From assembly GCA_040954595.2 (NCBI GenBank), contig CM082586.2, forward strand, positions 11,377,337-11,441,336: a stretch of 64,000 bases of DNA. The letters run 5' to 3'. The translations under genes and the position numbers were made by a program. This document shows, piece after piece, positions 11,267 to 37,271 of the stretch. The DNA comes from Balanoglossus misakiensis (Eukaryota; Animalia; Hemichordata). The notes beneath the pieces were generated by a model. That model was not told the DNA's origin and made no database searches. It was given only the letters and a program-made list of their open reading frames with translations. Numbering within the stretch: the stretch's first letter is position 1; the number at the start of each line of letters is the position of its first letter.

Positions 11267-11687
11267 CAGAGAAACTGTGTTAAATTTGGTCATCAATTGC
11301 TTTAAATCACACAAGACATTCCCAGAGCTAAAGTTACTGCAGCAGTCAGTTTCAACTCAGCTTGCAAATTGGGATCATGTCTTGTGTTCATCGAGACTGT
11401 CTGTAGTTGAGTTGACAGTCCTATGGGGTCAATGATGAACCTACAAATGTTCTTTCCAATGAAATTGTTATAAATCTAATATTCAGGATTTGCATTCATA
11501 CCTTAAACAATATAACTGTATTGCAAATATGGCAACTCTTCTAAGTTACATTGGAACACCTTCTCGCCACTGTTTGTGCCAAAATGGTGAATAAGCTTTC
11601 ATTTTCAAGCCTTAACATAGGCACCCAAAACAAGACAACAGCATTGCAAATATGGCATTTTTTGTTCAACTCTTCTCATTTGCATTG

Positions 11688-12934: not shown

Positions 12935-15900
12935 TAGCTCTGCATGGCCTGGTTAATCAATGTTGACGCAAAGGTTGACCCCACCAAACACTCAAAATTA
13001 ATGGGCACGACACTGGCCACTAGCTCTGCATGGCCTGGTTAATCAATGTTGACGCAAAGGTTGACCCCACCAAACACTCAAAATTAATGGGCACGACACT
13101 GGCCACTAGCTCTGCATGGCCTGGTTAATCAATGTTGACGCAAAGGTTGACCCCACCAAACACTCAAAATTAATGGGCACGACACTGGCCGCTAGCTCTG
13201 CATGGCCTGGTTAATCAATGTTGACGCAAAGGTTGACCCCACCAAACACTCAAAATTGATGGGCACGACACTGGCCGCTAGCTCTGCATGGCCTGGTTAA
13301 TCAATGTTGACGCAAAGGTTGACCCCACCAAACACTCAAAATTGATGGGCACGACACTGGCCGCTAGCTCAGCATGGCCTGGTTAATCAATGTTGACGCA
13401 AAGGTTGACCCCACCAAACACTCAAAATTAATGGGCACGACACTGGCCGCTAGCTCTGCATGGCCTGGTTAATCAATGTTGACGCAAAGGTTGACCCCAC
13501 CAAACACTCAAAATTGATGGGCACGACACTGGCCGCTAGCTCTGCATGGCCTGGTTAATCAATGTTGACGCAAAGGTTGACCCCACCAAACACTCAAAAT
13601 TGATGGGCACGACACTGGCCACTAGCTCTGCATGGCCTGGTTAATCAATGTTGACGCAAAGGTTGACCCCACCAAACACTCAAAATTGATGGGCACGACA
13701 CTGGCCACTAGCTCTGCATGGCCTGGTTAATCAATGTTGACGCAAAGGTTGACCCCACCAAACACTCAAAATTGATGGGCACGACACTGGCCACTAGCTC
13801 TGCATGGCCTGGTTAATCAATGTTGACGCAAAGGTTGACCCCACCAAACACTCAAAATTGATGGGCACGACACTGGCCACTAGCTCTGCATGGCCTGGTT
13901 AATCAATGTTGACGCAAAGGTTGACCCCACCAAACACTCAAAATTGATGGGCACGACACTGGCCACTAGCTCTGCATGGCCTGGTTAATCAATGTTGACG
14001 CAAAGGTTGACCCCACCAAACACTCAAAATTGATGGGCACGACACTGGCCACTAGCTCTGCATGGCCTGGTTAATCAATGTTGACGCAAAGGTTGACCCC
14101 ACCAAACACTCAAAATTGATGGGCACGACACTGGCCACTACCTCTGCATGGCCTGGTTAATCAATGTTGACGCAAAGGTTGACCCCACCAAACACTCAAA
14201 ATTGATGGGCACGACACTGGCCACTAGCTCTGCATGGCCTGGTTAATCAATGTTGACGCAAAGGTTGACCCCACCAAACACTCAAAATTGATGGGCACGA
14301 CACTGGCCACTAGCTCTGCATGGCCTGGTTAATCAATGTTGACGCAAAGGTTGACCCCACCAAACACTCAAAATTGATGGGCACGACACTGGCCACTAGC
14401 TCTGCATGGCCTGGTTAATCAGGGTTGACGCAAAGGTTGACTCCACCAAACACTCAAAATTGATGGGCACGACACTGGCCACTAGCTCTGCATGGCCTGG
14501 CTAATCAAGGTTGACGCAAAGGTTGACCCCACCAAACACTCAAAATTGATGGGCACGACACTGGCCACTAGCTCTGCATGGCCTGGCTAATCAAGGTTGA
14601 CGCAAAGGTTGACCCCACCAAACACTCAAAATTGATGGGCACGACACTGGCCACTAGCTCTGCATGGCCTGGTTAATCAATGTTGACGCAAAGAATGACC
14701 CCACCAAACACTCAAAATTGATGGGCACGACACTGGCCACTAGCTCTGCATGGCCTGGTTAATCAATGTTGACGCAAAGGTTGACCCCACCAAACACTCA
14801 AAATTGATGGGCACGACACTGGCCACTAGCTCTGCATGGCCTGGCTAATCAAGGTTGACGCAAAGGTTGACCCCACCAAACACTCAAAATTGATGGGCAC
14901 GACACTGGCCACTAGCTCTGCATGGCCTGGCTAATCAATGTTGACGCAAAGAATGACCCCACCAAACACTCAAAATTGATGGGCACGACACTGGCCACTA
15001 GCTCTGCATGGCCTGGTTAATCAATGTTGACGCAAAGGTTGACCCCACCAAACACTCAAAATTGATGGGCACGACACTGGCCACTAGCTCTGCATGGCCT
15101 GGTTAATCAATGTTGACGCAAAGGTTGACCCCACCAAACACTCAAAATTGATGGGCACGACACTGGCCACTAGCTCTGCATGGCCTGGTTAATCAATGTT
15201 GACGCAAAGGTTGACCCCACCAAACACTCAAAATTGATGGGCACGACACTGGCCACTAGCTCTGCATGGCCTGGTTAATCAATGTTGACGCAAAGGTTGA
15301 CCCCACCAAACACTCAAAATTGATGGGCACGACACTGGCCACTAGCTCTGCATGGCCTGGCTAATCAAGGTTGACGCAAAGGTTGACCCCACCAAACACT
15401 CAAAATTGATGGGCACGACACTGGCCACTAGCTCTGCATGGCCTGGCTAATCAAGGTTGACGCAAAGGTTGACTCCACCAAACACTCAAAATTAATGGGC
15501 GCGACACTGGCCACTAAGCTCTGGCATGGCTAATCAATGTTGACGCAAGGGTTGACCCCACCAAACACTCAAAATTGATGGGCGCGACACTGGCCACTAG
15601 CTCTGGCCTGGCTAATCAAGGTTGACGCAAGGGTTGACCCCACCAAACACTCAAAATTAATGGGCGCGACACTGGCCACTAGATCTGGCCTGGCTAATCA
15701 AGGTTGACGCAAGGGTTGACCCCACCAAACACTCAAATTTAATGGGCGCGACACTGGCCACTAGCTCTGGCCTGGCTAATCAATGTTGACGCAAGGGTTG
15801 ACCCCACCAAACACTCAAAATTGATGGGCACGACACTGGCCACTAGCTCTGGCCTGGCTAATCAATGTTGACGCAAGGGTTGACCCCAGCAAACACTCAA

Positions 15901-18900
15901 AATTGATGGGCACGACACTGGCCACTAGCTCTGGCCTGGCTAATCAAGGTTGACGCAGGGTTGACCCCAGCAAACACTCAAAATTAATACGCGCGACACT
16001 GGCCACTAAGCTCTGGCCTGGCTAATCAATGTTGACGCAAGGGTTGACCCCACCAAACACTCAAAATTGATGGGCACTACACTGGCCACTAGCTCTGGCC
16101 TGGCTACTCAAGGTTGACGCAAGGGTTGACCCCACCAAACACTCAAAATTAATACACGCGACACTGGCCACTAAGCTCTGGCCTGGCTAATCAATGTTGA
16201 CGCAAGGGTTGACACCACCAAACACTCATAATTGATGGGCACGACACTGGCCACTAGCTCTGGCTGGCTAATCAAGGTTGACGCAAGGGTTGACCCCACC
16301 AAACACTCAAAATTGATGGGAACGACACTGGCCACTAACCTCTGGCCTGGCTAATCAATGTTGACGCAAAGGTTGACCCCACCAAACACTCAAAATTGAT
16401 GGGCACGACACTGGCCACTAGCTCTGGCCTGGCTAATCAATGTTGACGCAAGGGTTGACCCCACCAAACAGTCAAAATTGATGGGCACGACACTGGCCAC
16501 TAGCTCTGGCCTGGCTAATCAATGTTGACGCAAATGTTGACCCCACCAAACACTCAAAATTGATGGGCACAACACTGGCCACTAGCTCTGGCCTGGCTAA
16601 TCAATGTTGACGCAAGGGTTGACCCCACCAAACACTCAAAATTGATGGGCACGACACTGGCCACTAGCTCTGGCCTGGCTAATCAATGTTGACGCAAGGG
16701 TTGACCCCACCAAACACTCAAAATTGATGGGCACGACACTGGCCACTAGCTCTGGGCTGGCTAATCAATGTTGACGCAAAGGTTGACCCCACCAAACACT
16801 CAAAATTGATGGGCACGACACTGGCCACTAGCTCTGGCCTGGCTAATCAAGGTTGACGCAAAGGTTGACCCCACCAAACACTCAAAATTAATGGGCACGA
16901 CACTGGCCACTAGCTCTGCCTGGCCTGGCTAATCAATGTTGACGCAAAGGTTGACCCCACCAAACACTCAAAATTAATGGGCACGACACTGGCCACTAGC
17001 TCTGGGCTGGCTAATCAATGTTGACGCAAAGGTTGACCCCACCAAACACTCAAAATTAATGGGCACGACACTGGCCACTAGCTCTGGGCTGGCTAATCAA
17101 TGTTGACGCAAAGGTTGACCCCACCAAACACTCAAAATTAATGGGCACGACACTGGCCACTAGCTCTGCATGGCCTGGCTAATCAAGGTTGACGCAAAGG
17201 TTGACCCCACCAAACACTCAAAATTGATGGGCACGACACTGGCCACTAGCTCTGCATGGCCTGGCTAATCAAGGTTGACGCAAAGGTTGACCCCACCAAA
17301 CACTCAAAATTGATGGGCACGACACTGGCCACTAGCTCTGCATGGCCTGGCTAATCAAGGTTGACGCAAAGGTTGACCCAACAAAAACACTCAAAATTGA
17401 TGGGCACGACACTGGCCACTAGCTCTGCATGGCCTGGCTAATCAAGGCCTGGCTAATCAAGGTTGACGCAAAGGTTGACCCCACCAAACACTCAAAATTG
17501 ATGGGCACGACACTGGCCACTAGCTCTGGCCTGGCTAATCAAGGTTGACGCAAAGGTTGACCCCACCAAACACTCAAAATTGATGGGCACGACACTGGCC
17601 ACTACCTCTGCATGGCCTGGCTAATCAAGGTTGACGCAAAGGTTGACCCCACAAAAACACTCAAAATTGATGGGCACGACACTGGCCACTAGCTCTGCAT
17701 GGCCTGGCTAATCAAGGTTGACGCAAAGATTGACCCCACCAAACACTCAAAATTGATGGGCACGACACTGGCCACTAGCTCTGCATGGCCTGGCTAATCA
17801 AGGCCTGGCTAATCAAGGTTGATGCAAAGGTTGACCCCACCAAACACTCAAAATTGATGGGCACGACACTGGCCACTAGCTCTGCATGGCCTGGCTAATC
17901 AAGGTTGACGCAAAGGTTGACCCCACCAAACACTCAAAATTGATGGGCACGACACTGGCCACTAGCTCTGCATGGCCTGGCTAATCAAGGTTGACGCAAA
18001 GGTTGACTCCACCAAACACTCAAAATTAATGGGCGCGACACTGGCCACTAAGCTCTGGCATGGCTAATCAATGTTGACGCAAGGGTTGACCCCACCAAAC
18101 ACTCAAAATTGATGGGCGCGACACTGGCCACTAGCTCTGGCCTGGCTAATCAAGGTTGACGCAAGGGTTGACCCCACCAAACACTCAAAATTAATGGGCG
18201 CGACACTGGCCACTAGATCTGGCCTGGCTAATCAAGGTTGACGCAAGGGTTGACCCCACCAAACACTCAAATTTAATGGGCGCGACACTGGCCACTAGCT
18301 CTGGCCTGGCTAATCAATGTTGACGCAAGGGTTGACCCCACCAAACACTCAAAATTGATGGGCACGACACTGGCCACTAGCTCTGGCCTGGCTAATCAAT
18401 GTTGACGCAAGGGTTGACCCCAGCAAACACTCAAAATTGATGGGCACGACACTGGCCACTAGCTCTGGCCTGGCTAATCAAGGTTGACGCAAGGGTTGAC
18501 CCCAGCAAACACTCAAAATTAATACGCGCGACACTGGCCACTAAGCTCTGGCCTGGCTAATCAATGTTGACGCAAGGGTTGACCCCACCAAACACTCAAA
18601 ATTGATGGGCACTACACTGGCCACTAGCTCTGGCCTGGCTACTCAAGGTTGACGCAAGGGTTGACCCCACCAAACACTCAAAATTAATACACGCGACACT
18701 GGCCACTAAGCTCTGGCCTGGCTAATCAATGTTGACGCAAGGGTTGACACCACCAAACACTCATAATTGATGGGCACGACACTGGCCACTAGCTCTGGCT
18801 GGCTAATCAAGGTTGACGCAAGGGTTGACCCCACCAAACACTCAAAATTGATGGGAACGACACTGGCCACTAACCTCTGGCCTGGCTAATCAATGTTGAC

Positions 18901-21568
18901 GCAAAGGTTGACCCCACCAAACACTCAAAATTGATGGGCACGACACTGGCCACTAGCTCTGGCCTGGCTAATCAATGTTGACGCAAGGGTTGACCCCACC
19001 AAACAGTCAAAATTGATGGGCACGACACTGGCCACTAGCTCTGGCCTGGCTAATCAATGTTGACGCAAATGTTGACCCCACCAAACACTCAAAATTGATG
19101 GGCACAACACTGGCCACTAGCTCTGGCCTGGCTAATCAATGTTGACACAAGGGTTGACCCCACCAAACACTCAAAATTGATGGGCACGACACTGGCCACT
19201 AGCTCTGGCCTGGCTAATCAATGTTGACGCAAGGGTTGACCCCACCAAACACTCAAAATTGATGGGCACGACACTGGCCACTAGCTCTGGCCTGGCTAAT
19301 CAATGTTGACGCAAGGGTTGACCCCACCAAACACTCAAAATCGATGGGCACGACACTGGCCACTAGCTCTGGGCTGGCTAATCAATGTTGACGCAAAGGT
19401 TGACCCCACCAAACACTCAAAATTAATGGGCACGACACTGGCCACTAGCTCTGGGCTGGCTAATCAATGTTGACGCAAAGGTTGACCCCACCAAACACTC
19501 AAAATTAATGGGCACGACACTGGCCACTAGCTCTGCATGGCCTGGCTAATCAATGTTGACGCAAATGTTGACCCCACCAAACACTCAAAATTGATGGGCA
19601 CGACACTGGCCTCTAGCTCTGCATGGCCTGGCTAATCAATGTTGACGCAAATGTTGACCCCACCAAACACTCAAAATTGATGGGCACGACACTGGCCACT
19701 AGCTCTGCATGGCCTGGTTAATCAATGTTGACGCAAAGGTTGACCCCACCAAACACTCAAAATTGATGGGCACGACACTGGCCACTAGCTCTGCATGGCC
19801 TGGTTAATCAATGTTGACGCAGAGGTTGACCCCACCAAACACTCAAAATTGATGGGCACGACACTGGCCACTAGCTCTGCATGGCCTGGTTAATCAATGT
19901 TGACGCAGAGGTTGACGCCACCAAACACTCAAAATTAATGGGCACGACACTGGCCACTAGCTCTGCATGGCCTGGTTAATCAATGTTGACGCAAAGGTCG
20001 ACGCCACCAAACACTCAAAATTAATGGGCACGACACTGGCCACTAGCTCTGCATGGCCTGGTTAATCAATGTTGACGCAAAGGTCGACCCCACCAAACAC
20101 TCAAAATTAATGGGCACGACACTGGCCACTAGCTCTGCATGGCCTGGTTAATCAATGTTGACGCAAAGGTTGACCCCACCAAACACTCAAAATTGATGGG
20201 CACGACACTGGCCACTAGCTCTGGCCTGGCTAATCAATGTTGACGCAAGGGTTGACCCCACCAAACACTCAAAATTGATGGGCACGACACTGGCCACTAG
20301 CTCTGGCCTGGCTAATCAATGTTGACGCAAGGGTTGACCCCACCAAACACTCAAAATTGATGGGCACGACACTGGCCACTAGCTCTGGGCTGGCTAATCA
20401 ATGTTGACGCAAAGGTTGACCCCACCAAACACTCAAAATTGATGGGCACGACACTGGCCACTAGCTCTGCATGGCCTGGTTAATCAATGTTGACGCAGAG
20501 GTTGACGCCACCAAACACTCAAAATTAATGGGCACGACACTGGCCACTAGCTCTGCATGGCCTGGTTAATCAATGTTGACGCAAAGGTCGACGCCACCAA
20601 ACACTCAAAATTAATGGGCACGACACTGGCCACTAGCTCTGCATGGCCTGGTTAATCAATGTTGACGCAAAGGTCGACCCCACCAAACACTCAAAATTAA
20701 TGGGCACGACACTGGCCACTAGCTCTGCATGGCCTGGTTAATCAATGTTGACGCAAAGGTTGACCCCACCAAACACTCAAAATTGATGGGCACGACACTG
20801 GCCACTAGCTCTGGCCTGGCTAATCAATGTTGACGCAAGGGTTGACCCCACCAAACACTCAAAATTGATGGGCACGACACTGGCCACTAGCTCTGGCCTG
20901 GCTAATCAATGTTGACGCAAGGGTTGACCCCACCAAACACTCAAAATTGATGGGCACGACACTGGCCACTAGCTCTGGGCTGGCTAATCAATGTTGACGC
21001 AAAGGTTGACCCCACCAAACACTCAAAATTAATGGGCACGACACTGGCCACTAGCTCTGGGCTGGCTAATCAATGTTGACGCAAAGGTTGACCCCACCAA
21101 ACACTCAAAATTAATGGGCACGACACTGGCCACTAGCTCTGGGCTGGCTAATCAATGTTGACACAAAGGTTGACCCCACCAAACACTCAAAAATTAATGG
21201 GCACGACACTGGCCACTAGCTCTGCCTGGCCTGGCTAATCAATGTTGACGCAAAGGTTGACCCCACCAAACACTCAAAATTGATGGGCACGACACTGGCC
21301 ACTAGCTCTGCATGGCCTGGCTAATCAAGGTTGACGCAAAGGTTGACCCCACCAAACACTCAAAATTGATGGGCACGACACTGGCCACTAGCTCTGCATG
21401 GCCTGGCTAATCAATGTTGACGCAAATGTTGACCCCACCAAACACTCAAAATTGATGGGCACGACACTGGCCACTAGCTCTGCATGGCCTGACTAATCAA
21501 TGTTGACGCATATGTTGACCCCACCAAACACTCAAAATTGATTGGCACGACACTGACCACTAGCTCTG
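12935..21568. repeat. 86-bp satellite (with 82-bp variant lacking CATG), about 100 head-to-tail copies
   Basis: Unit tagctctgcatggcctggttaatcaatgttgacgcaaaggttgaccccaccaaacactcaaaattgatgggcacgacactggccac; starts at 12935, 13021 and so on; no unique spacers. Confidence 0.98.
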
Positions 21569-21605
21569 CACTACAGCCCAGTGTGCGCCATCTTTGTCCG
21601 ATATT
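21569..21605 (+). repeat. Left TIR (13 bp + 11-bp spacer + 13 bp)
   Basis: CACTACAGCCCAG-tgtgcgccatc-TTTGTCCGATATT. Confidence 0.8.
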
Positions 21606-21687
21606 TCCGTCCCTACTTTCATGGCCTCATGAATAATGTATGAGGCGATTTGTTACCGGCAATGGAACGTTCGCCAGTTACAACAAC

Positions 21688-24600
21688 ATGAAAATGCCGG
21701 TAAGTATTACAAGACATTAAACGCATTTATAATGTTTACATCACGTTATCATATTCGTTAAGGTCTTAAGCTAGTATTGTCATCATTCTCTGATTTCTAT
21801 TCATTTAATTTCACTGAAAATCTGACCTGGTTTCAAATCGCTATCATTGGTAACTATGTAAACAAAGAACATAGCAACCACAACCAAGACAGAAAAACGG
21901 CCGAAAAAATCAAATCTTAATGCATTATTCAAAATTTCAAAACCATGAGAGTGTTCCTAAGACGTTTGTAACTCAGTGTTTTGATTTTCTATCCCCAAAA
22001 AGGTCATATGTAGAAATTGATCCAAGCAGAAATTCATCGAGTTTGGCGCGTTCTGCCTGCGCGTCGCTCTACCATTGATTACAATGGCACAGCTACGCAA
22101 ATGTCGACCATCAGGCAAAACATATCGGCAGATTTCTCGAGTTTGAAGCGTGAACCTAAAAAACCAAAACGAGCAGATTGTTCCTTGATATCTATATAAC
22201 ATGTTGATATATCATTTTCGTTCTAAAATGTAAGAGTAAATATTTTGAACGAGAGAGTTCTTGCGACAGCGCTTTGAACGCCGCGCGCGTACAGCGTTTA
22301 GGCAAAGCAGACGCACACAGAAGGAACTGCGTCCACGCGCAATATACGTAGATTGCAGCTGATTATACTCAATCAATGTTCCGGTACTTGCAACAGTATG
22401 CCAGTACTTCGCAAAATACACAGTCTTTTATATCATCAGGTCTTCTGTAGCGTCATTAAATACTGTCTGTTTGGAACTGTTTGACTGAAACAGCTTTCTA
22501 GATGACCTTTTATGTTTTCTACAACTTTTCACATTTATTCACATTTAGGAAATGCTCCATTGTGTAACTCCATCCCAGCTGTGCTCTGGATATAACTCAA
22601 ATCATGCCTAACAGGAAAAGGACAAACCATTTTGACATCGGGCAGTATGCAGTCCAACAAAAAAAGCCAGAGAAATAGCTAGAGACATACAACTTCAACA
22701 GCTGTTAGATGCTGAGTTAGCTGCAAAGACACTGCCAGAAAAGGTTAAGAGCAAGTCAGAGAATAGATACAAGCTAGGGGCATGGGCAAGAGAGAGAAAG
22801 CGTAGACGTGAGGAAGAGGTAGCTCAGTACAGAGAGAAAATGCAGAAATTAGATGCAAAGAGGAGACTAGTCGACAGGGCCAGTAAGCAACTAAACAGGC
22901 TAGCAAAGAAGCAAAGGAGATTAGCTGGAAATAGGGTTAAGCTTAATCAGGAGGTAAGGTAATTATATAGAAGGAATTTAGCTTCATTTCAGATTTTCAC
23001 AAGATTTATGATTACAAACAGAATAGGAAAATATCCACCAAATTAAAGTTTGTATACTTTAAATTATATTACAACTAAGTGAATCATAAAACATTTTGAC
23101 CTTGCTTTAATGTATATGATATGATTTTATGTGTGTTTGTTTTCTAAATTCTGAACTACAGCTTTGAAACACCTCCCTGCTTGACCTTGGCATAACACTG
23201 GGGTTTCCATTTATGCATATTGCTTGCTCATGTGACATTGCCTCTCTGTTTGACCTTGGCATGACACTGGGATTTCCATTCATGTGTATTGCTTGATCAT
23301 GTGATATTCTCTCTCTGTTTGACCTTGGCATGACACTGGGGTTTCCATTCATGTGTATTGCTTGCTCATGTGACATGGCCTCCATGTTTGACCTTGGCAT
23401 GACACGTGGGTTTCCATTTATGTGTATTGCTTGCTCATGTGACATGGCCTCCATGTTTGACCTTGGCATGACACTGGGGTTTCCATTTATGTGTATTGCT
23501 TGCTCATGTGACATGGCCTCCATGTTTGACCTTGGCATGACACTGGGATTTCCATTCATGTGTATTGCTTGATCATGTGATATTCTCTCTCTGTTTGACC
23601 TTGGCATGACACTGGGGTTTCCATTCATGTGTATTGCTTGCTCATGTGACATGGCCTCCATGTTTGACCTTGGCATGACACTGGGGTTTCCATTCATGTG
23701 TATTGCTTGCTCATGTGACATTGCCTACCTGTTTGACCTTGGCATGACAATGAAAATCTGTTTTGTATTCATTTATTAAAGATTGCAGATTTGACATCCC
23801 CAAAGAAACAGAAGTGGGTTCATAAAAGCAGCCAGGTTTGTGCTAATAACAGTGAATGCCTCACACTGTCCAGAAGTCAGCAACATGAACGCAGAAGTCA
23901 GACTCTTCATGCAGCTACAGTCATACACCAGTCATCATCAGGAACAGATATATCTGCAGGGAGACATGTCAGTGCAAATCCACCAAAATCAGCTCTTGAT
24001 GGGCTATGGTATACTTTGATCAACAGTGCCACTCCACGTCAAATGGAAAAGTACCTTCAATCATCAATGAAAATAAATGAATTGGTCATACCAACTTTGA
24101 TAAAGAAATCAATATCTGAATTTGAGAAAAGTGAAGGTAATTTGACTAGGAGTGTGCAAGTGTTGTATCAGAATGGGGTTTTGTCAAAACGCAAATACAA
24201 TGCCTTACGTAATAGTGAGTTGAATCTGTCTAAATTAAAACAACCTAGAAAAGTGTTGCAATTTCACTTTAGGTGTAACATACCAAGGTTACTTTCCTAC
24301 AACAAGGTCACTGAATATACACGTGGTTTAGATATAGGAAGTCTTGAACCAATTGTAACAGATGCAAACAAAGTAGTGGGTATGAAGCGAAATACAGAGC
24401 AGATGCTCTTTAAAGTTGCTGACATGTATCTTTGCTTGAGTGAGCACCACCCTAACATCCTAAATTGGTTTGGCAAACCGAAGGGCACTTTCCAACTTGC
24501 TGTTGGTGCTGATGGGGCTCCTTTTGGAAAATATGGTCAGGCAACTTCCTGGCTTGTCAGTTTCATCAATGTGGGCCACAGATTAGCAAGCCCTGATGAT

Positions 24601-25988
24601 AATTTCTTGTTGCTAGGGGCTAATCTGAAGGAAGATGACCCAGTCCTGATAGATTATGCTAAAAACCTAGCCAAAGAGTTTGAGATCATAGAGGCCAAAC
24701 AATACACTTTACATGGCCTGAGTGTAAAGTTTAATGTATCTTTGCTGCCATTTGATCAAAAGGGATTAGCCTCAGTTTCTGGTGAGTTATCTAATGCTGC
24801 TGAGTATTTCAGTTCCTTTGCTAATGTAACAAAAGGTAGCATAGATGAAATAGGGGCAGATATAGGGCCAGGGAAATTTTGGTCAGAGTGGAGCTATAAG
24901 CAGTGGCAAAATTCAAAGCAAATTTGACAAAGAAAACAGGTAAGCCTGAAACATCGACAGATCGCTCTAAGGTCACACGTTTCATTGCCTCCAGAAAATC
25001 CCGACAGGAATATATTCCACCCCTGGGTAAGTATATACAGTGTGCCAAGATAGAACCCCTACATCTAAAAAACAATGCCTGGCAGTATTTCTTTCAAAGG
25101 CTTCTTACTGATGCTGTGGCTAAGACTGACCAAAAAGTCATTGACCATGGTGTGAAATTAGAAAAGCTACCACCAAATTCATGCCTGTACAAATTCCTGC
25201 ATACACTAAAATATACAGTGAGAGCAGGGAAACTATACAATCAAATTGTCAAATATTTTGCTGAGAATAAGGTTAGTACCCATGCCCAATCAGTGAGAGT
25301 TCACCGCTTTACAGGGGAAGAATCAAGGAAGTTGGCATGGTCTTTTATGTCACTGATAGAGTGTTTTAGGGAACCCGGTATCAGTGCACAGGTGAGAGCG
25401 AAATTGTCCCTGTATGGTTACATTGGTGTCCTACTCAGAGATATAACATCTCTCTGTTCCAGGTTTACCCTACATGAGAGAGATATTGTAGTACTAAGGC
25501 AGAAGTGCAAATGGTACTTCAATTTGCATGCGTTATTTCTGACCGTAAACAATACTATTTGGCATATAGGATATGTTGTTCCGTGTCATGCATCTCAAAT
25601 CCACCAGCAGTTCCAAATGGGGCTTGGGCTTAATACAATGGAGGGCAGGGAGGCAAAACATCAGCGCCTTCTGGAATACAGCAATAATTCCACCCCTCAA
25701 AATAGATGGCCACTAATTTTCAGACATGAGTATGTATTGTTGTACTGGTTACGCATGCGAGACCCCGCTTCAGATAACTACAGGGGGGATGGGAGGTCAA
25801 ATGCCTCCAAAGTAATAAAGTACATCCCAGACAAATGCTTTGATGACCCATCATACTGTTATTGTGGGAATGTAAAGGAAGAGTTGTCAAATTCCTGTGA
25901 AATATGCAGCAGTGAATTTATGTCAGAAATAAAACAGTCTGCAATTAGTGGTAAGATCTCAAAAAAACTAAAAAAAATAATGAAATAA
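21688..25988 (+). pseudogene. Spliced RAG1-core/Transib-like DDE transposase; predicted exons 21688-21699, 22549-22953, 23782-25988; two nonsense codons in exon 2 and a frameshift near 24903
   Basis: Phase-0 GT-AG junctions (ccg|gtaagt, tttag|gaa, gag|gtaagg, taaag|att). Motifs AVGADGAPFG, LPFDQKGLASVSGELS, IEPLHLKNNA, RFTGEESRKL, GLGLNTMEGREAKH parallel, in order, RAG1 ESCDGMG, GYDEKLVREVEGLE, IDALHCDIGNA, RMNGNFARKL, SIGAWASEGNESGN. Exons 1-2 are less certain than the core. Confidence 0.78.
23177..23748. repeat. 69-bp minisatellite (~8 copies) inside predicted transposase intron 2
   Basis: Unit tttgaccttggcatgacactggggtttccattcatgtgtattgcttgctcatgtgacatggcctccatg; gives the 23-aa repeat ORF 23107-23721. 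Confidence 0.95.
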
Positions 25989-26408
25989 AATGTGAAAGTT
26001 TGAATTTCATGATTCAAAACAATTATTACTGTACATGAAATGTACCAGATAGTTTTAGATTTGTATATAACTGTAAGAGAGTTTGTTGTAAATAATCTTT
26101 CATTATGAATGTCACAGATTTTGTGCTGCTTGTATTGTATTGTTCAAAATATGTATATAGCTTTTTAATCATCCTTTGAAACTAGCTGCTTATATCAGCT
26201 CTGTAGATAACCATGTTTCAAAATAAGTGAATAAAAACTGAATGATAAATGATTCACCCACAGCTATTCAGTTCCTATAAAACATGTTTTTCTTTTTTAA
26301 TTTTGCTTGGACATGCAACGATGCATGAATTCAAATGGACTGACAAAAAGTAATATAGTCAGTTCCAAGAACATGAAAAAAAATTTCAACAACAGTCTAA
26401 ATATGATT

Positions 26409-27029
26409 TCACAAATGCTGAGCAACACCATGTTTGTTCCAGCATCCAAAATGGAAATGTATTGTCACTGTCTCGGCTGATTTCCTGTATCTGACAATCA
26501 TAGGTTTATCTTCGGTGCAGATAACTTCCACCCGCTTACCCTTTACTGTCTTCACCAGAAGTTGTTGGTTTTCATAGTTGACACCTCTACCCAGCACGTA
26601 ATTCACTTTGTTGATCCAGGTAAATCGAAAGGTAGCAATACATGGAGTTTCCCGATCATAAATTCCCATTGAATTACGGGTAGCGCACTTTCGAAATACA
26701 TCGAAAACTTCCATAGGAACATTCCTACCAAAACTGCACTTCCATGGGTTGCGCACTGAGGGTGATGGCTTCATTCTCTGCATAATTGTTGAGCGCCAGT
26801 GACACATCTCCCGTTCGAATACAGGATACACCGGAATCTGCTGCATCTTCGCAAGCTCCACCATCGTTGCACTACGTTTGCGAACTGTTACATCAACAGC
26901 AGCATCGAGATCATCAAAACAATCATGTAGGTTGATGGAACGGTCGATATTTGTCCTCAATAACTGAAATTTGGCCTCACGCAGCTTACGTTTCACTGTT
27001 TTAGAAACATCGATCATGGACGCCGCCAT
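26409..27029 (-). CDS. 206-aa protein of unknown function, second (convergent) gene of the transposon
   Basis: Uninterrupted non-repetitive ORF, start context caaaATGGCGGCG about 105 bp inside the right end, AT-rich 420-bp gap to the transposase stop; no kelch or PHD pattern seen. Confidence 0.75.
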   Translation of the reverse strand: MAASMIDVSKTVKRKLREAKFQLLRTNIDRSINLHDCFDDLDAAVDVTVRKRSATMVELAKMQQIPVYPVFEREMCHWRSTIMQRMKPSPSVRNPWKCSFGRNVPMEVFDVFRKCATRNSMGIYDRETPCIATFRFTWINKVNYVLGRGVNYENQQLLVKTVKGKRVEVICTEDKPMIVRYRKSAETVTIHFHFGCWNKHGVAQHL

Positions 27030-27097
27030 TTTGTATATACGATGCTAGGAACGTGACCCCAGCATATGACCTCAATTAACATATTTCCGCTTCGCGG

Positions 27098-27134
27098 AAT
27101 AGCGGACAAATGAACACACTTCTGGGCCGCAGTG
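27098..27134 (-). repeat. Right TIR (13 bp + 11-bp spacer + 13 bp)
   Basis: Reverse complement reads CACTGCGGCCCAG-aagtgtgttca-TTTGTCCGCTATT. Confidence 0.8.
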
Positions 27135-29721
27135 CTGCATTTTTGGAGTGGTCGAAAGTTTTAACATACAATCAACATGTCATATATGATCAGGGCACCA
27201 AATTCGAAGAACAAAGGTTTTTTTATTTTTTTTCTAAAAATGACATTTTCAAGGAAAATTTGGTAAAACGCAATTTCGTCTGCAGTGAGCCAAATTAGAC
27301 TGTATTTTGTGGAATTTGTATCGATATATACATACGAAGAGCATTCTATACTCCATCAGATTTCCGAAAATGTAGAAAACAGGTATTTTTTGTAATTTTC
27401 AAAAATTTACCATTTTGACCAAATTGTGGCTAAAATTGTTATTTTCGTGTTGAATGCCGCCAGTGTCACTGCTTTTAAAAGTCATCAAAACTTTTAACAT
27501 ACAAGCAATTGTTTATATATGATCAGGTCACCGAATTAAAAAAATAAAGAATGTTTTCCCTAAAAATGACCTTTTTGGTGCAAAAACGAATAAAACGCAA
27601 TTTTGTATTAAATCAGCTCATTCAGAGTGCATTTTTTATAATCAGCACCATTTTTTACATATAATGGAAATTTCATACATCATCAGATATCCAAATATGA
27701 AAAAATGATTTAGATTTTAGATGATTGTCCAAAATTAGCTGATATCTAATAAATGTAGTATTGAACCGTTCCGTCCCCCCCCCCCTACATTATATGCGGT
27801 ACGCCGATGTCAGCTTACCCGGCAGTACTGCAGGCCGTGCCGCCAACTAACGTCGGTGTTTGAAACGCCCTGGTTAAATTCGGGCTCTCTCTATAAATTG
27901 ACAGGCAATAATGCAGTCCTACCCGAACAAATGTCGAGTGTTGACCCGCTGTGACTTTCCCTCTTCGGTTTGCCCGACTTAGCCAACGTCTTTGTACTAG
28001 AGTGTCGGGTCTTTTGCAGAGCCAGGCCGAAGGAAATCCGAGTAGATCAACGTGGTCTCTGTACGCGTGTTTCTGCTCTAGAGTGTCGGGTCTTTTGCAG
28101 AGCCAGGCCTAAGGAATTCCGACTTGATCAACGTTGCTAACGAACGCTAGTGTCTGTCATGGTGTGCCGGGGTTTTAGTCGAGCCAGGCCGTAGGAGATC
28201 TGACTTGATCATCGTGGTCAATGTACGCGTGTTTCCGCTCTAAAGTGCCGGGGCTTCAGCTAAACCAGGCCGTAGGAAATCCGACGTAATCACCGTTGAT
28301 AACTTCCGCCAGTCTGTGTCATATAGAGCCGGTGCACCAGCCGAGTCACGCCGTAGGAAATCTGACTTGATCAACGTGGTCAATGTACGCCTGTTTCTGC
28401 TCTAGAGTGCAGGGGCTTCAGCTAAACCAGGCCGTAGGAAATCCGACGTAATCACCGTTGATAACTTACGCCAGTCTGTGTCATATAGAGCCGGTGCACC
28501 AGCCGAGTCACGCCGTAGGAAATCTGACTTGATCAACGTGGTCAATGTACGCCTGTTTCTGCTCTAGAGTGCCGGGGCTTCAGCTGAGCCAGGCCGTAGG
28601 AAACCCGACGTGATTACCGTTGTTAACTTACGCCAGTCTGTGTCCTATATGTAGTGCCGGGGCATCAGCCGTGCCAGGCCGAAGGAAATGTGAGTAGATC
28701 ATCGTGGTCTCTGTACGCGTGTTTCTGGTCTATAGTGCCAGGGCTTTAGCCAAGCCATGCCGTAGGAAATATGACTTGATCAACGTTGCTTACTAACGCT
28801 AGTGTCTGTCATAGTGTGCCGGGGTTTTAGTCGAGCCAAGCCGTAGGAGATCAGACTTGATCAACGTGCTCTCTGTACGCGTGTTTCTGCTCCAGAGTGC
28901 CGGGGCTTTATCCAAGCCATGCCGTAGAAAATCTGACTTGATCACCGTTGCTAACGTACGCTAGTGTCTGTCATATTGTGACGGAGATTTAGCCGAGCCA
29001 GGCAGAAGAAAAATCGACTTGTTCAACGTTAACAGTGTGCAACTGTTTCTGCTCTAGAGTGTCAGGGTTTTAGCCGACTTATGCTGTAGGAAATCTGAGT
29101 TGATGAACGGGAATTCAATGTTAGAAAACCCGTGTGGAAAGTATCTCTACCCGTTTGAAACTAAGAAAAGAATTTATTCTTATTTATTTTGTAAAAAAGA
29201 CAATTTTTCGAGAGAAAAAAAGTCGAAAATGGTAATTTTGTCTTGGGTGATTCAAATTATACCGCCTTTTCTGGAATTTGCAGCACTTTTTACAGAGAAC
29301 GACACTTCATGCTCCGTAATATTTCCGAAAATGAAGAAAACAGTTAATGTTTTATGATTTTTTAAAAATTTACCATTTTTGTCAAAATTTGGCCAAAATG
29401 GCTATTTTTTCTTGAATTCCGTCAATATCTCTGCATTTTTGGAGTGGTCGAAAGTTTTAACATACAATCAACATGTCATATATGATCAGGGCACCAAATT
29501 TGAAGAACAAAGGTTTTTTTATTTTTATTTCTAAAAATGACATTTTCAAGGAAAATTTGGTAAAACGCAATTTTGTCTGCAGTGAGCCATATTAGACTGT
29601 CTTTTTTGGAATTTGTATCGATATATACATACGATAAGCATTTTATACTCCATCAGATTTTCGAAAATGTAGAAAACGGGTATTTTTTGTAATTTTCAAA
29701 AATTTACCATCTTGCCCAAAT

Positions 29722-30221: not shown

Positions 30222-33028
30222 TCAAATAGAGAGATCCGATATTCGTACTCGAGCGGCAACTGCAGAGTCTCTGACAGGTCGTCTCGGGGGTACAACATCC
30301 GCCTTCACCGAGGAATCTTCAGAGGCTCCAGCTGTGTCGACTGTTTCAGTATTCGTGTTGGAATCTGCTCCAATACCTGTATTATCTCCAGACACAGTTG
30401 ACAGCTCCTTGGAGACAACTTCCAATGGGTACAATTTATGGATAGGTCGGTTTGTAGGACCACCTGCGGTGTTCAACTCCGCAGATCGTACCAGTTTATT
30501 ATTACCGAAGATCAACCTTGTTACAGTTCCTAAATGCCATTTCGGACGTTTGTCAGTGTCACTGTGTATTATCACGACATCTCCGACCTTGATGACATTA
30601 TCACGAGTTCCTTTGGTGGGATGTCGTTCACGTAGGGCAGTCAGATACTCGGACGACCATCTTCGCCAAAATTGATCGTGTAATCTTGATAGATGTTCAT
30701 ATCTTTTGTTGATTTCACGATTATCACAGTAAGATGGGTCAATCACCTCCTCGTCGGTGATCTCGATGTACGGCAATGAGGTCAGTGTCCTGCCATGTAG
30801 CAAGTGATTTGGGGTCAATCCAATGTTGTCGTTTATACTAAATGACACGTACGTTAACGGCCTGTCGTTTAAAACGGCTTCAATTTCAGTCACAACTGTT
30901 GCGAGTTCATCAAAGGTTAGGTAAGCTCGACCGAGAGTTTTCCTAATAGCGTTCTTTGTCAAAGCAATCAGCCTCTCCCAGAAGCCACCAAACCAGGGCG
31001 CGCGCTTCGGTATAAACGTCCATTGTACACGGTGTGCGGCGAGAAAGTCATTTACTTCTGGCGTATCAAACAGTGTTTTGATTTCATTGGCAGCCGATAA
31101 ATAAGTCGATGCGTTGTCTGACAGCATCCTACTCGGCAAAGAACGTCTCGCGGCGAATCTTCTGAACGCGTGCATGAACGTCTGGGTTGACATATCAGGA
31201 ACCAGTTCTAGGTGAATGGCACGCGTCACCGCACAGGTGAATAAACAGATATAGGCTTTGGCACGTGTCCCATCTTTGGCCTTGGTATAAAGATGACCCG
31301 TGAAATCCACGCCTGTTACAGTAAATGCTGGGACAATGTTCACTCGATAACTTGGTAGCGGCGCTTGCACTGGATTCGCGTAAGGTTTCCCGGTAACTTT
31401 GTTGCAAATGACACAACCACGTAAGACACCGCGTACAATAATCTGAATTTTGGGGATCCAATATCTTTGCCTTATCTGTGTCACTGTAGATTGGACTCCC
31501 TGGTGAAGCGTCAGTTCGTGTGATTTCCGTATTATCAAATTTGTCAATTTATGATGCGAGGGTATCAAGGCGGGAAATCTTGTGACGAAATCGATCGGCG
31601 CGTTATGGATTCTACTCCCACAGCGAAGTACGTCTTCTTCGTCAACAAATAAGTTCAGTTGTCGAACAATGGGCGCACATTTACTCAAGTTCAATTTCAC
31701 AGACTGGATTTCGGCGTCATAGAACTGCCGTTGAATATGTTTAACCCACATATTTTCCGCTCGGTGCAGCTCATCAGGGGTAATTCTCCCGTGTTTCACC
31801 TCGGTAGATTTTTTCATCCGTGCGATGAATCTGAGGACATAACTTGTCACTCGTAATAGCCTATCCAAGTTGTTGAATCTGGAAATGTCAACAACGTGTT
31901 GAATTCCGTAGTCATTGGGACTGGTAATTTCCAGATTTTCGCGATCTGTACATCGTCTGGCTTTGGGGGGAGCGAGTATTTCTGCCTTCTCGGTAGACTG
32001 ATCGTTGATTCCGTTGCCGAAACGCGGCGGCAATCTGTCCGTCTCATCTGGTTCGATTGCGGTATGCATCACATTAACATCAAACGCTGGGCAACTAGGC
32101 CAATCGCTTGTCTTTAGCCATGTTGGTCCATTACGCCATAGTTCAGAGCGTTCCATCATTTCGTAGGTTACCCCTCTGGTTAAAAGATCAGCTGGGTTGT
32201 GTTCTGATGGGCAGTATTTCTTTGTGGACTGAAATTCGCGAATTTCATCTACTCGATTCTTCACAAACACCGGAAGTCTCTTCTCACTGTTCAGCCAGTG
32301 AAGGACAATTTGGCTGTCACTCCATAAATAACAACGAACTATGTCATATTTGGAGGACAGGGCTTCTTTAGCGTACTTGCTGAGACGTGTGGCTATTAAC
32401 GCAGCCATCAATTCCAGTCGCGGGAGTGTAGTTTCAGCCACTGGTGCGGTTCTAGTCTTCGCCATCACAAACGACGTTTGCTGTCCTCTTTTCAAATACA
32501 CTACTGCCCCATACGCTCTCTGGCTTGCGTCTGCAAAGGCGTGTAGCTCGCATTCATTGTCGCCTTCAAGTTCATCAAAATATTGTCGTTCGATCTTCGT
32601 GTTTCGCGAGTCTTTGAGATCTTCTGCGATGTGCATCCATTGAGTGTAGAGATCTGCGTTGATAGGTTCATCCCAGTCTAATTCCAGTTTCCATAGTAAC
32701 TGAATGAACAATTTGGCTTTGATCATTACAGGGGCGAGAAATCCAAACGGATCAAATAGCATCGCCACATAGCTGACAATGTCACGTTTGGTCACGAGTT
32801 CGGCACGCGACGACATATTAACCACTTTGGAGTAAGTCAATTCGTCAGATTTTGTTGACCACTGCATTCCCAAAACGGATACATCTTCGGTGGGTTCGTT
32901 CAGATTGTCACATGTAGCGAGTTCGTTTATTTGTTGACAGTTGGAAGACCATGCTCTGAGTTTGAATCCGCCTGATGTCATCAACTCATTGGCTTCATGG
33001 TAGTATTTCATGGAGTTTTCTGCAGTAT
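30222..33028 (-). pseudogene. pol: BEL/Pao pol C-terminal part: end of RT, RNase H, integrase
   Basis: GGFKLRAWSSN, HAFADASQRAYGA, TLPRLEL, NPADLLTRG, H..H..CVIC zinc finger, GVDFTG, SDNASTY, GGFWERL; separated from the N-terminal part by a LINE insertion. Confidence 0.93.
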
Positions 33029-34465
33029 GTTTTTATTTTATTTATTTATTACACAGATCAACGGGCAAACCCACTTACAGATCTGGAAAACAATAAAAAC
33101 AATTAAGTCACAAAACAAAAATTAACTGAAAAACAAGACACCAAAAAAGTAACACATGTCACGTAAAATATAAATACAAATCAAGGAACAGTACCATTAA
33201 AATGACTGGATAAAATAGATTTAAAACTGTGGAGCGTAGAAAAAATATCAATATTACATTTAGAAGAAATCTCATTAAAAGCAGACATGCATCTGAGCAT
33301 TGTCGAGAATTTTCTACAATTAACGGAGCGCAAATCGGGTTTAAAAAGGGGTTTCTTGCGTAAATTTCTACTAGGGGCGTAAAAACATATTTGATTTAAA
33401 ATACCAGGTGAATCATACTGTGAGTGGATAATTTTGTATAAAAAAAACATGTCAAGGGTGAGTCTTCTGTTATATAACATTGGGATATTCAGTAATCTAC
33501 AATAAATAGGGTAGCTGGACCTGCTGCAGTGAATATTGAGTTTGCAACAAATGTACTTCACAAACTTAATTTGTACCCGCTCAATCTTGTCTGACAGGCC
33601 CTTTTGGTGGGGTGACCACACAACAGAGCCATACTCTAGAATAGATCTTACATAAACAAAATATAGAGAAATAATAGCGGATATGTCATTAAAAGGCTGG
33701 CAGAGGCGCTTAATAAAACCCAGAGATTTGAAGGCTCTGGAAACTGTGTTATTTATGTGGAAAGAATAATTGAGATTAGAAGTAAGGTATATGCCCAAGT
33801 CCTTGATTACAGAAACACGTTGAAGGGGAGTGCCATTGATAGAGTAGTCAGTAGATGAAATAACCCTTTTCTTTAGGGTGAAACTGATGAATTTGCATTT
33901 ATTGATATTAGGTGACAACTTCCAGTTGTCACACCAGAGAGCAAATTTATCAAGGTCTTTCTGTAACAAGTCACAATCAGCGGAGGAGGTGATAGTACGG
34001 TAAATCTTAGCATCGTCGGCATACATGCTGAGCTTTGCAGAAATATCTAACAGTGATATATCATTTATATACATTACAAAAAGTAGTGGCCCCAAGAGTG
34101 AACCTTGTGGGACCCCCGATGTAGCAGTGAAGCTGTTTGACGAGTGACTGCCAAACACCACCCTCTGTTGTCTGAGATGGAGATACGACGCCAGCCAGCT
34201 GTGCAAATTGCCACATATACCAAATTTGGCGGCTTTGTACAGCAGTAGTGTGTGACAGACACTGTCAAACGCCTTGCTAAAATCAGTGTAGATTGAATCT
34301 ACCTGTTCTTTGTTGTTCAATGAAGCTGAAATGAAATCAGTGTAAGCCACTAAGTTGGTTGTGGTAGATCTATTTTTAACAAATCCATGCTGATCAATGG
34401 ATATATTTGGTTGAACATGCTGGTAGATATGAGGGACAATGACAGCTTCGAAAATCTTAGCAAAA
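33029..34465 (-). mobile_element. 5'-truncated non-LTR retrotransposon (CR1/L2/Jockey-group RT) inserted in the BEL RT
   Basis: DQHGF, DFSKAFDSV, SGVPQGSLLGPLLF, YADD, DLGI; open to stop at 33181; (TAAA)n tail at 33029-33050; TAT duplicated at 33026-33028 and 34466-34468. Confidence 0.92.
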
Positions 34466-37271
34466 TATCAACTCCATCGATCACATTATCCACACAGATA
34501 TTATTTCCCAATCTGTCAGCGGTGGGAAGTTGACTATTGTTCTCTAAATGCGTCTTGATAACCGCATTGAGGATGAATGGGGAACAGACTGCTCCAAACA
34601 AGACAGACTTAAACTGCAAAGTTATGAAGTCACTTTCTGGGTCGTTAATGTCCGACAGCCACAGAAATTTCGTGAATTTCCTCTCATCTTCTTCCAACCG
34701 AATGTTCAGGAATGCTTTCTCAATGTCAGCTGTGAAAGCAATGTTATTGGCGCGGAATCTCAGCAGAATCGCTGGCAGGTCATTTATTAATGACGGTCCA
34801 GTTTGCAAGCAATCATTCAAACTTGGATAATTAGAATCCTTCTTACAAGAGCAATCATAAACGATGCGAATGGGTGTTGTGGTCGAATTCTTAACCACCG
34901 GACGATGTGGCAAATAGTGTCCGATATTCACGTCATCTTCGTCAACCTCTCCGATGAAGTCGCGACGTCTCTGTTCATTGATTATGTCGTCATATTTCTT
35001 GATGAGTTCAGAGGGTAACCTGCGTATCATATTACGCGTGCGTTTCATGGCGACATCGTAGTTGGTGGGTAGTGGAGGGTGATCTTCCTTCCACAGTAGT
35101 TTAGCTACGTATTTTCCTCGGTCAACTCTCAAGTGCGTGTCTCTGTAAGACTCGTACGTCAACTGTTCATCAACTGTTGGATTGTCCTGAATACCGATCA
35201 ATTCAAGGTCCCACATATTTTGGACCTGTGGTTCTCGGCCGATCGCAGTACTATCCATCGGTGTATACATGTCCGTTGCGCGATCTCCATGCAGTCCGTT
35301 GATAGAGTTCTCTGAAACTACGTTACTGGTATCAGCAGTAGAAATCACATGTAAGATATGCGCATTAGAATCCACTTTGGGAGTTCCGAGGGGTCCGGAG
35401 AGTAAGTATCCAAATTTGGATGACACAGCAGTGGGGCCGGACGCGCCAGAAATAACGTGTGAGCCCACGAAATTCCAATATTGGTCGGCTCCGATTAGAA
35501 CATCTATTGGCCACGACTGATCACTCGAAACTGGATGTGCGAATGGTAGCCCTTTCAGGTGGCTCATATTGTGGACTTCCTGAGAAATGTGATTTGTTAA
35601 GTCCGACGATATCTCTGGAATTATCATCGCGTGAATAGTTGAAGTATTCCCGTTCAGTTCATGAGCAGTTAGTTCGGTGAATCCCATGGTGCGTACTTTG
35701 GAATCCTTGCCACGGAAGGTCGATAACTTTATGTGTTCGTGCCGCGTAGCTTTCGCGGACAGCTGACGGGCGAATCTCTCAGTGACGAATGTCTTATTTG
35801 CTCCTTCATCAAACAGGATGATGGCATGTATGGGGGTTCCCCGTCCGACAGACAGTGGTAAAAACGCAGTTTTCAGCAGCACTGGCCCAGTGTTTATCTT
35901 CTTATCCGTAAATGTATCGGTATTAGTCAATGTTACTTTGACATCAGAAGTACTTGATGATGGCGATGGCGAGGACGACGCTCCGGTTGGCGTAGTTGTA
36001 GCGGTGGGAACGTCGTAGTGTAGCGCAGAGTGATGACGTTTCCTACACTTTCTGCAGGAGTATTTTGATTTACACTCCGCAACTCTATGTTTTCCAAAGC
36101 AATTAAAACATAGTCTGTCCTTCTTCACAATGTCCAGTCTCTCGCGCGTATCAGTTACCACAGTGCAATTTGACGCGAAGTGTGACCCTTTGCAGAACGG
36201 GCACGTTTTGACAGGGGCGCGAAAATTCTGTTTACCTGTCATCTGCGTTTTCGTGTGAAACGCGGTTATTACCGGTTCTCTGGTAGTGGCCATTGTTATC
36301 TCGTCGACCCGGTTGCCGGCTTGAAGGGCGTTTATCTCGTGTTGAATGGCTTTTCGTAGATCTGGTAATGTCCACGCAGCATTACCATGTTTTCTTGCTA
36401 TCTGCTCTCGAATGTTAGGAGGTAATTTCTCCCGTATTATTGGAACCAAAAGTTCGCCGTATGTGGTTTCCTCCTTACCCAGCGACTGAAGACCTCGAAC
36501 GTGATTTTCAATCGAGTCGTAGAAATGCCTTAAACTTTGTACGTCGGCGGTTGGGCTTTGTAGATTCCACAACGCGGTCATATGAGCATCTACTATGAGA
36601 TGGGTTTGTCCGTATCTTTCGGTCAATAAGTCAATCGCGTGCGTGAGTGGCAATCCGTTGATTGTTCTCGCTGCTTCATCTTTGAGTACACTCCGCAAAT
36701 ACGTAAACTTCTGAATGTTGTCCAAATTAGTGTCCGAAGGTATCGAAGACTTGAATACATCGAAGAAACTCGACCATTCTATTACATTGCCTGAGAAAGT
36801 TTGCAGCTGGAGTTTCGGTAGAGTTACTGTTTTACGAGGCGTCGCGTTGCCGAGGCTGCTTCCCGTTACATTACCAGTACTAGTAGTAGCTGTCCGCATC
36901 TCCGATTTGTTTTTCTTGATGAAAGATGCGATGCGATGATTGTGTTCGAAGATTTCGGCGTGGTAGTCGCCTGAAGTTTCATTTTCTTCGTCAAAGTGTT
37001 CATCGTCAATTAGATCGAGGATTCTCACCTCGAGGTCGGCGAGTAGACGGATCTTGTTCGAAAGTTGTTCGTTTAGCCCTTCCAGCGTGTCGAGTGTAGT
37101 CGGCTTGTCTGTACCGACGTCTACGAAATTGTTCATGATGGTGTCGGCCCGGTTGAACAGTCGGGTCACTTGTGCGCGTTGACCACGACGCGATCTCTTC
37201 AGTTTTGTCAACGCTGTTGGCTGATCCTCTTGTTGTCCATCTTGTGGCGCGATGTGTTCTTGTTCCGACAT
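34466..37271 (-). pseudogene. gag-pol: BEL/Pao gag-protease-RT N-terminal part
   Basis: LPKLQLQTFSG, three Cys/His knuckles (CPFCKGSH..C, CFNCFGKH..C, CRKCRKRHH), protease ILFDEGA and DVLIGAD, RT ADIEKAF, FGAVCSPF, CVDN (expected YVDN). Confidence 0.93.

Follow-up and report, generated by a model that had tools for sequence, protein, structure and literature searches.

A broken two-gene transposon from Balanoglossus misakiensis with a predicted RAG1/Transib fold, no ZnB cysteine motif and a convergent partner gene

RAG and its transposon relatives are the closest described systems to the element analysed here. RAG and Transib act by nicking and hairpin formation, and in RAG-like (RAGL) transposases the ZnB region has four zinc ligands (PMC10629977); the second protein of RAGL/ProtoRAG elements, RAG2L, is a kelch propeller plus a PHD finger (PMC7204232), while described Transibs encode a transposase only (PMC1131882). 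The origin of the RAG1-RAG2 pair poses the old question of why a self-sufficient Transib-like enzyme gained a second gene, and what the first role of that gene was. The present locus lies in a 64,000-nucleotide stretch of Balanoglossus misakiensis DNA (the window; assembly GCA_040954595.2, contig CM082586.2, positions 11,377,337 to 11,441,336, forward strand), in which positions 21569-27134 form a 5,566-bp element with imperfect inverted ends starting CAC and two convergent genes between them. It is probably a broken copy of a two-gene transposon lineage, with a transposase of predicted RAG1/Transib fold minus the ZnB cysteines and a partner protein that is likely to be a basic helper needed for mobility; that the lineage is one of transposons is almost certain. 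A lineage with the same predicted fold and convergent layout as ProtoRAG, and a different partner, would make the question of origin testable on intact natural elements. The definitions used for comparison are those of PMC9435367, PMC12730594, PMC4411706, PMC1131882, PMC7204232, PMC10629977, PMC4079192 and the bioRxiv reports 10.1101/2021.09.26.461848 and 10.64898/2026.08.26.747230.

The left end of the element begins CACTACAGCCCAG and the right end, in reverse complement, begins CACTGCGGCCCAG, the two agreeing at 11 of 13 positions. Both are bipartite, a 13-nt block being followed by an 11-nt spacer and then by TTTGTCCG, with symmetric spacing (11/11). Among 63,960 windows scored, the best minus-strand match of the left 40-mer is the right end itself (score 39, versus 28 for the non-overlapping runner-up), so that the 5.57-kb unit bounded by terminal inverted repeats (TIRs), proposed in an earlier note made from the sequence alone, is upheld; so too are the two tail-to-tail genes of that note, a large gene on the plus strand and a small open reading frame (ORF) at 27029-26409 on the minus strand. 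The trinucleotide CTG stands directly outside both ends. The features are as follows.

21566..21568, no strand: apparent 3-bp target duplication, left copy (CTG), where an 86-bp satellite array ends
21569..21608, plus: left TIR, imperfect and bipartite (CACTACAGCCCAG, 11-nt spacer, TTTGTCCG)
22604..22953, plus: predicted transposase exon 1, basic and helical, with an F-x-I-G-x-Y-A motif that recurs in relatives
22954..23781, plus: predicted phase-0 GT-AG intron containing a 69-bp tandem repeat
23782..24899, plus: transposase exon 2, first frame, with D 24511, E 24631 and D 24754
24898..24900, plus: frame break in transposase exon 2
24900..25988, plus: transposase exon 2, second frame, with LH (H 25062), RFTG, E 25650 and CxC...CxxC
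26409..27029, minus: convergent partner gene, intact, 206 amino acids (aa), isoelectric point (pI) 9.8
27095..27134, minus: right TIR, stopping 105 nt upstream of the partner ATG
27135..27137, no strand: apparent 3-bp target duplication, right copy (CTG), where a 2-kb tandem unit begins

The C-terminal frame of the transposase matches 32 longer proteins among 4,103 candidates, the closest being P0004 of the acorn worm Ptychodera flava (60%), and the other named hosts are the sea anemones Nematostella, Exaiptasia and Actinostola and the ribbon worm Lineus. A family profile built from 31 of these 32 proteins recovers 3,264 clusters at E<=0.001, of which 692 remain at E<=1e-30. Nematostella has five near-identical full-length loci, each on its own contig, the five contigs differing in length. 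The family is large, widespread among marine invertebrates and recently mobile, and it would identify as transposases hundreds of proteins labelled 'uncharacterized' in sea anemones, acorn worms and ribbon worms. The window proteins gave no significant match in Pfam or PDB sequence searches, and no transposase Pfam family was matched by the 31 family members at E<=0.1. No relatives were found in viral contigs (0/26 stretches), and prokaryotic genomes yielded one, L081, in a contig labelled as an Anaerolineae metagenome-assembled genome (MAG). A prokaryotic origin for L081 was rejected: because its 3.2 kb of flank lack any ORF of 80 aa, it is read as host DNA binned into the MAG, and the flank suggests that this host is an animal. 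At 3241-11782, L081 is a complete 8.5-kb element with an ATA duplication.

For structure prediction the full-length relative P0004 (60–65% identical) was folded rather than the broken protein of the window, with 146 sequences as AlphaFold2 input (29 initial homologues and 117 of 144 new profile finds). The resulting model has a mean local confidence (pLDDT) of 94.3 and a predicted TM-score (pTM) of 0.91. Foldseek ranked RAG1 first (6dbj, E 4.2e-12, TM 0.53/0.63), followed by HzTransib (6pqx, 1.1e-7), BbRAG1L (6b40, 6.7e-7) and the P element (1.8e-3), and VIA-align superposed model residues 50-608 on RAG1 460-1007 with Z 23.0 over 468 aligned residues (root-mean-square deviation 3.8, 9% identity). 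The other Z scores were 20.2 for BbRAG1L, 20.1 for HzTransib (428 aligned), 12.6 for the P element and 6.4 for Hermes; identity in the alignments with the RAG1/Transib group is 8-13%. The transposase is predicted on this model to have the RAG1/Transib fold, a structural match whose absence, according to the earlier note, would have refuted its proposal. The 3-point lead of RAG1 over Transib is not a placement, because RAG1 is represented by many more entries and states.

The acidic residues of the family follow the DEDE order, and their residue-for-residue match to RAG1 is drawn from that order and from secondary structure. The codons GAT 24511, GAT 24754 and GAG 25650, which had been put forward as catalytic, are exactly those of family residues D181 (100/101), D262 (119/120) and E566 (90/92); E221 (108/112) and the LH motif (L369 120/122, H370 120/121) are likewise conserved, and the near-invariant residues are retained in the window. 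The zinc ligands of ZnB are another matter. As the earlier note had it, canonical ZnB cysteines are missing: a CxxC after the second D occurs in 0/118 family rows, both C(2)C cysteines in 0/122 (the first alone in 7), and Y-F-S-S-F-A-N occupies the place of the C(2)C of RAG1 and its kin. Because, in addition, H(3-4)H is kept in only 23/96 rows, the ZnB zinc site appears from the alignments to have been lost in the family. A C-terminal CxC...CxxC is found in 70/78 rows, and the arginine of the Y-R-F-T-G motif (Arg451) in 109/112.

Related loci were taken from one metagenome scan, 80 of the 232 relatives being analysed, and the evidence for linkage between the two genes covers the window and these metagenome loci. 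The small ORF of the window matches 32 of the 80 by tblastn (E<=4.4e-5), in every case downstream of the transposase and on the minus strand. Where 1.5 kb or more of downstream sequence is available, a partner profile is positive in 30 of 33 loci, and where the limit is lowered to 1 kb, in 34 of 44; when families are delimited at an 80% DNA cut-off, the partner is convergent in 14 of the 17 that are testable, and the linkage to the transposase that had been proposed thus holds in other copies. The ratio of non-synonymous to synonymous change (dN/dS) of the partner is 0.26-0.34 in four of five unsaturated pairs, dS being saturated in nine more, and the gene is under purifying selection. Partner and transposase distances are correlated (Spearman 0.55, permutation p 0.0001; n=16, 15 loci and the window) and four clades are common to the two trees; because kin share their history, this correlation speaks of long co-inheritance and not of binding. 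That the small gene is a passenger, captured and of no use to the element, is very improbable. No partner is detected in three of the 17 families, and neither Pfam nor structure searches assign it a function; set against this, it keeps the same place and orientation across families at about 24% partner identity, with saturated synonymous sites and intact frames, and there is no single-copy host orthologue among the 30 matches described below, so that a passenger is already largely refuted.

The partner protein alone found no homologue among 47 candidates. A profile built from the related loci adds 30, every one with a precomputed PF26709 assignment; PF26709 was not matched in the Pfam profile search. 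No single-copy host orthologue is among these 30, which are sequences without genomic context. Conserved positions are W78, R84-R85, P95-W96, F109, Y181 and a C-terminal Y/F-G-x-W-N-x-x-G, and the pI is 9.0-10.2 in 18 of 19 partner proteins; there is no conserved Cys/His finger pattern. The partner model (pLDDT 84.8, pTM 0.68) has six helices and seven strands of at least three residues, and is predicted to comprise N-terminal helices (residues 2-85) followed by an alpha+beta domain. A kelch propeller was ruled out, the model being too short and too helical, so that the accessory protein would differ from RAG2, as had been supposed. No match at E<=0.001 was found for the model in the PDB with Foldseek, and the ESM Atlas returned nothing usable for the window partner, with scores of at most 0.81 for its relative P0236. 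A wide VIA search gave a best Z of 7.3, all hits falling onto helices 1-63, and in a further search the best Z was 6.3, while small archaeal-virus proteins and RnlA scored about 4; a viral structural match at E 2.8e-4 was rejected for its TM of 0.22. This lack of a solved match is no proof that the predicted partner fold is new.

In 6 of 13 relatives, belonging to six families, inverted pieces of the element's own partner gene, 84-96% identical to it, lie between the left end and the transposase core. The piece differs in each family, and the window has none. They are located as follows.

L002: 569-746
L006: 1014-1249
L040: 3128-3234
L060: 282-472
L066: 1170-1267 and 2091-2177
L081: 3777-4172

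These pieces may reflect arm-to-arm copying or an RNA control of the partner. In the latter case they could yield double-stranded RNA against the partner, as would suit an anti-silencing or regulatory protein that never touches the transposase, the ProtoRAG layout then being a matter of convergent gene order. Plant CACTA and Mutator elements carry second genes of this kind, and the partner, a small basic protein, evolves fast, its mean identity being 24% where the transposase has 41%. On the other side, no chromatin-reader Pfam family (chromo and Tudor among them) and no known DNA-binding one is matched in the partner, tight co-divergence also fits a physical pair, and the inverted pieces may be neutral products of arm-to-arm copying; a purely regulatory partner is on balance somewhat improbable. 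That the partner serves transposition in some way is, by comparison, probable. It would bind nucleic acid, either at the element ends or in the transpososome, or on the chromatin or RNA of the element so as to counter silencing, and is most likely a nucleic-acid-binding cofactor or an anti-silencing guard. A direct role as a transpososome subunit is conceivable, at a little short of an even chance.

Relatives begin CACGC(C/T)G(G/A)G or CACGGTGGG, with CACGC or CACGG as the first five bases. In most of them, as in the window, the partner ATG follows the right end after about 90-110 nt, and in some after about 300; flanks vary at a fixed boundary within families. Exact 3-bp duplications (GAT, AGC, TAG, ATT, ATA) flank 5 of 13 two-ended loci, in five families, where a chance match is expected at 0.020 per locus (binomial P 4e-6). 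Duplications of 4-8 bp were found in 0/13, and one locus has a 2-bp match. L060, whose left flank is 1 nt, was excluded from the count, and a TTA match in L041 was dropped since it was based on an inner TIR-like copy rather than on the true left end. One family (L040, positions 2395 and 3240; also L042, L043 and L045) has, besides its true outer left end, a second TIR-like copy with a constant flank, 845 bp further in. Both ends and a duplication are present in L003, L064, L068, L070 and L081, with an open transposase core in L003, L068, L070 and L081. Loci without a duplication may owe this to the collapse of multi-copy elements in short-read assemblies.

The apparent 3-bp duplication of the earlier note stands with a caveat: CTG is present at both flanks of the window copy and the relatives support the size, but the flanks of this copy lie in different repeats. 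Both the 86-bp satellite and the 2-kb unit contain CTCTGCAT. With the element between two different repeats, the CTG of this copy has no simple empty site to be compared with, and the 3-bp size therefore rests on the relatives; the CTG pair may record insertion into an older junction, or be the product of a rearrangement. The window was compared with contigs of two public runs, X1 and X2, which represent one sample, possibly the window's own source. One X2 contig, with no counterpart in X1, joins the satellite (window 21312) to the 2-kb unit (27137) without the element, and its junction reads as the left CTG, its palindrome CAG, two more bases, and the right flank minus two bases. This resembles a hairpin-type excision scar but is a hint only: it comes from a single contig, the shorter side of the junction has 27 letters, and the junction lies between high-copy repeats.

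With the ends, duplications and both genes in hand, the element may be compared with each described group. It resembles RAG1, RAGL and ProtoRAG (5zdz, 6dbj, 6b40) in its predicted fold over RAG1 460-1007, in the DEDE order, in its CAC-starting bipartite ends and in the convergent second gene between them. It differs from them in lacking the ZnB C(2)C, in making 3-bp (5/13) rather than 5-bp (0/13) duplications among its relatives, in a predicted 206-aa alpha+beta second protein instead of kelch plus PHD, in a short basic N-terminus instead of a Cys/His-rich or RING region, in the symmetric end spacing of the window copy (11/11), and in the C-terminal CxC...CxxC, the low structural identity and the absence of any profile match. 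The ProtoRAG-like character suggested by the earlier note accordingly stands for gene layout and predicted fold, to which the likeness is limited. With Transib (HzTransib, 6pqx) the element has in common the predicted fold, CAC ends and the LH motif. Some Transibs make 3-bp duplications (bioRxiv 10.64898/2026.08.26.747230), so duplication length alone is no classifier; Transib as described is single-gene, whereas most families here carry the partner, and it keeps C(2)C/H(3-4)H, of which the element lacks the C(2)C, and there is no sequence match to HzTransib.

Chapaev3 (PMC4079192, PMC4411706) is like the element in its CAC..GTG ends, 3-bp duplication, LH motif and animal hosts. Its duplication consensus is TWA (PMC4079192), which fits none of the six duplications found here (the five of the relatives and CTG); its C(2)C and H(4)H compare with 0/122 and 23/96 rows, and the conserved second gene is a further difference. 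Chapaev3 also has an N-terminal Chapa zinc-finger domain (PMC4411706), while exon 1 in the window encodes a single His and no Cys, a contrast judged by composition and not by a Chapa profile. EnSpm/CACTA and the CMCT clade (PMC12730594) agree with the element in CA..TG ends, a duplication within 2-5 bp, a RAG1-related DDE core and, in some members, a second protein. The window ends read CACTA and CACTG and, with a 3-bp duplication, fit EnSpm, whereas the relatives start CACGC or CACGG; the element lacks C(2)C and matches no CACTA transposase Pfam family. Shared C(2)C and H(3-4)H motifs are part of the description of Kojima's CMCT clade (PMC12730594); the element, although its ends and duplication length match, lacks the C(2)C, which all CMCT lineages and RAG1 are reported to have. 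The element is thus distinct from RAGL, Transib, Chapaev3 and EnSpm as their papers define them, and it departs from what has been taken to be a universal motif of the CMCT clade.

It might nevertheless be a divergent member of a catalogued superfamily (Chapaev3, animal EnSpm or Transib) that is already in Repbase or Dfam. The family is multi-copy in Nematostella, a genome on which Repbase curators have reportedly worked. Chapaev3 and EnSpm are both marked by CAC..GTG ends with a 3-bp duplication (PMC4079192, PMC12730594), the window ends and the 3-bp Transibs point the same way, and together these leave such membership unlikely but far from negligible, the misfit to TWA and the 31 members without a transposase Pfam match speaking against it. 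The earlier note had recognised no named family; this holds for Pfam transposase families and for the literature, in which a search found no paper describing the lineage, with subscription journals, Repbase Reports and Dfam outside its coverage, and Repbase and Dfam entries outside the comparison. The note's proposal of a distinct two-gene lineage in the RAG1/Transib neighbourhood is supported by predicted fold, by linkage and by the failure of the four published definitions to accommodate it. It is distinctly doubtful that the rank is that of a widespread superfamily-level branch of RAG1/Transib without ZnB and with its own obligatory second subunit, of a fold lacking a clear solved match, in the RAG2-like tail-to-tail position; were it so, the way in which the RAG1-RAG2 pair came into being would have a natural counterpart here.

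Several observations weigh against a two-gene lineage of RAG1/Transib fold with a partner needed for mobility. Four family profiles (A1, A2, A7, A8) retrieved no RAG1 or HzTransib chain from the PDB at E<=10, and because there is no sequence-level link to RAG1/Transib the placement rests on the predicted model of a relative. Families L012, L020 and L047 have no detectable partner in the DNA examined. One partner pair has a dN/dS of 1.4, on six differences; purifying selection and co-divergence would suit any gene that benefits the element and not only a catalytic cofactor, and no acidic or metal cluster is conserved in the partner from which a function could be read. Eight of the 13 two-ended loci lack a 3-bp duplication, the left end being damaged in L007 and L041, and the window copy itself is flanked by two different repeats, the satellite on its left and the 2-kb unit on its right. 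The reading is most at risk from a Repbase/Dfam entry that already exists and from a partner role that proves unremarkable.

Because of the fold and the conserved residues, RAG/Transib-like chemistry is likely. By analogy, a transposase dimer would pair the two CAC ends, cutting by nick and hairpin, with the hairpin on flanking DNA, would release the element, and its ends would be joined to the target with a 3-nt stagger. A RAG-fold enzyme with such a stagger would be a comparison case for target bending as the setting of duplication length. By a tentative alignment, Arg451 of Y-R-F-T-G may correspond to RAG1 R848. R848 is described as blocking RAG transposition (PMC10629977). If the two residues correspond, the family would be an active transposase carrying a residue thought to stop RAG from transposing, with the 3-bp stagger as a possible way round.

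The window copy itself is likely to be dead, its frame being broken in exon 2. The first frame of exon 2 is 65% identical to P0004 over 309 aa and the second 60% over 367 columns, and about seven to eight codons are absent at the 24898-24900 break relative to P0004, from which loss of function is probable. A run contig has the same break and is identical to the window over 24754-24964. In exon 1, by contrast, the apparent break is likely an assembly slip, because the A run at about 22658 is one base short in the window and every covering contig has one or two more A. Exon 1 is predicted to run from ATG 22604 to a donor after 22953, with the acceptor at 23782, and encodes a short basic N-terminus whose F-x-I-G-x-Y-A motif recurs in 14 relatives, again at the N-terminus, and precedes the core in five loci. 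The 69-bp repeat in the predicted intron (23172-23749) has 8.4 copies. In run X1 contigs a diverged second copy or allele spans about 21900-23170, and in X2 the element's 5' region at 21824-22285 is found on many high-depth contigs, which suggests that it carries an embedded small repeat.

The surroundings of the element are repetitive. The 86-bp satellite occupies 12935-21570 (about 102 copies, 95% matches), and from 27135 to 64000 there is a tandem array of the 2-kb unit, in which several insertions break the series; every unit contains an internal repeat of 81/162 bp. The stretch 30225-37280, on the minus strand, holds the ORFs of a BEL/Pao long terminal repeat retrotransposon (DUF1759, reverse transcriptase, peptidase A17, integrase zinc finger), with a second reverse transcriptase fragment at 33184-34467 within the same region. 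At 39835-44007 (minus strand) lies a tyrosine-recombinase retroelement with a zinc knuckle, a reverse transcriptase and a phage-integrase ORF, presumably DIRS-like from its layout; it has a weak Dam methyltransferase match (E 2e-4, below cut-off). A 3.3-kb element at 49612-52931, with TAG..CTA inverted ends and a TCT duplication, which we take from its end pattern to be Academ-like, sits in another copy of the 2-kb unit. Its insertion point is one base from the site used by the two-gene element, and the site in the 2-kb unit is possibly an insertion hot spot.

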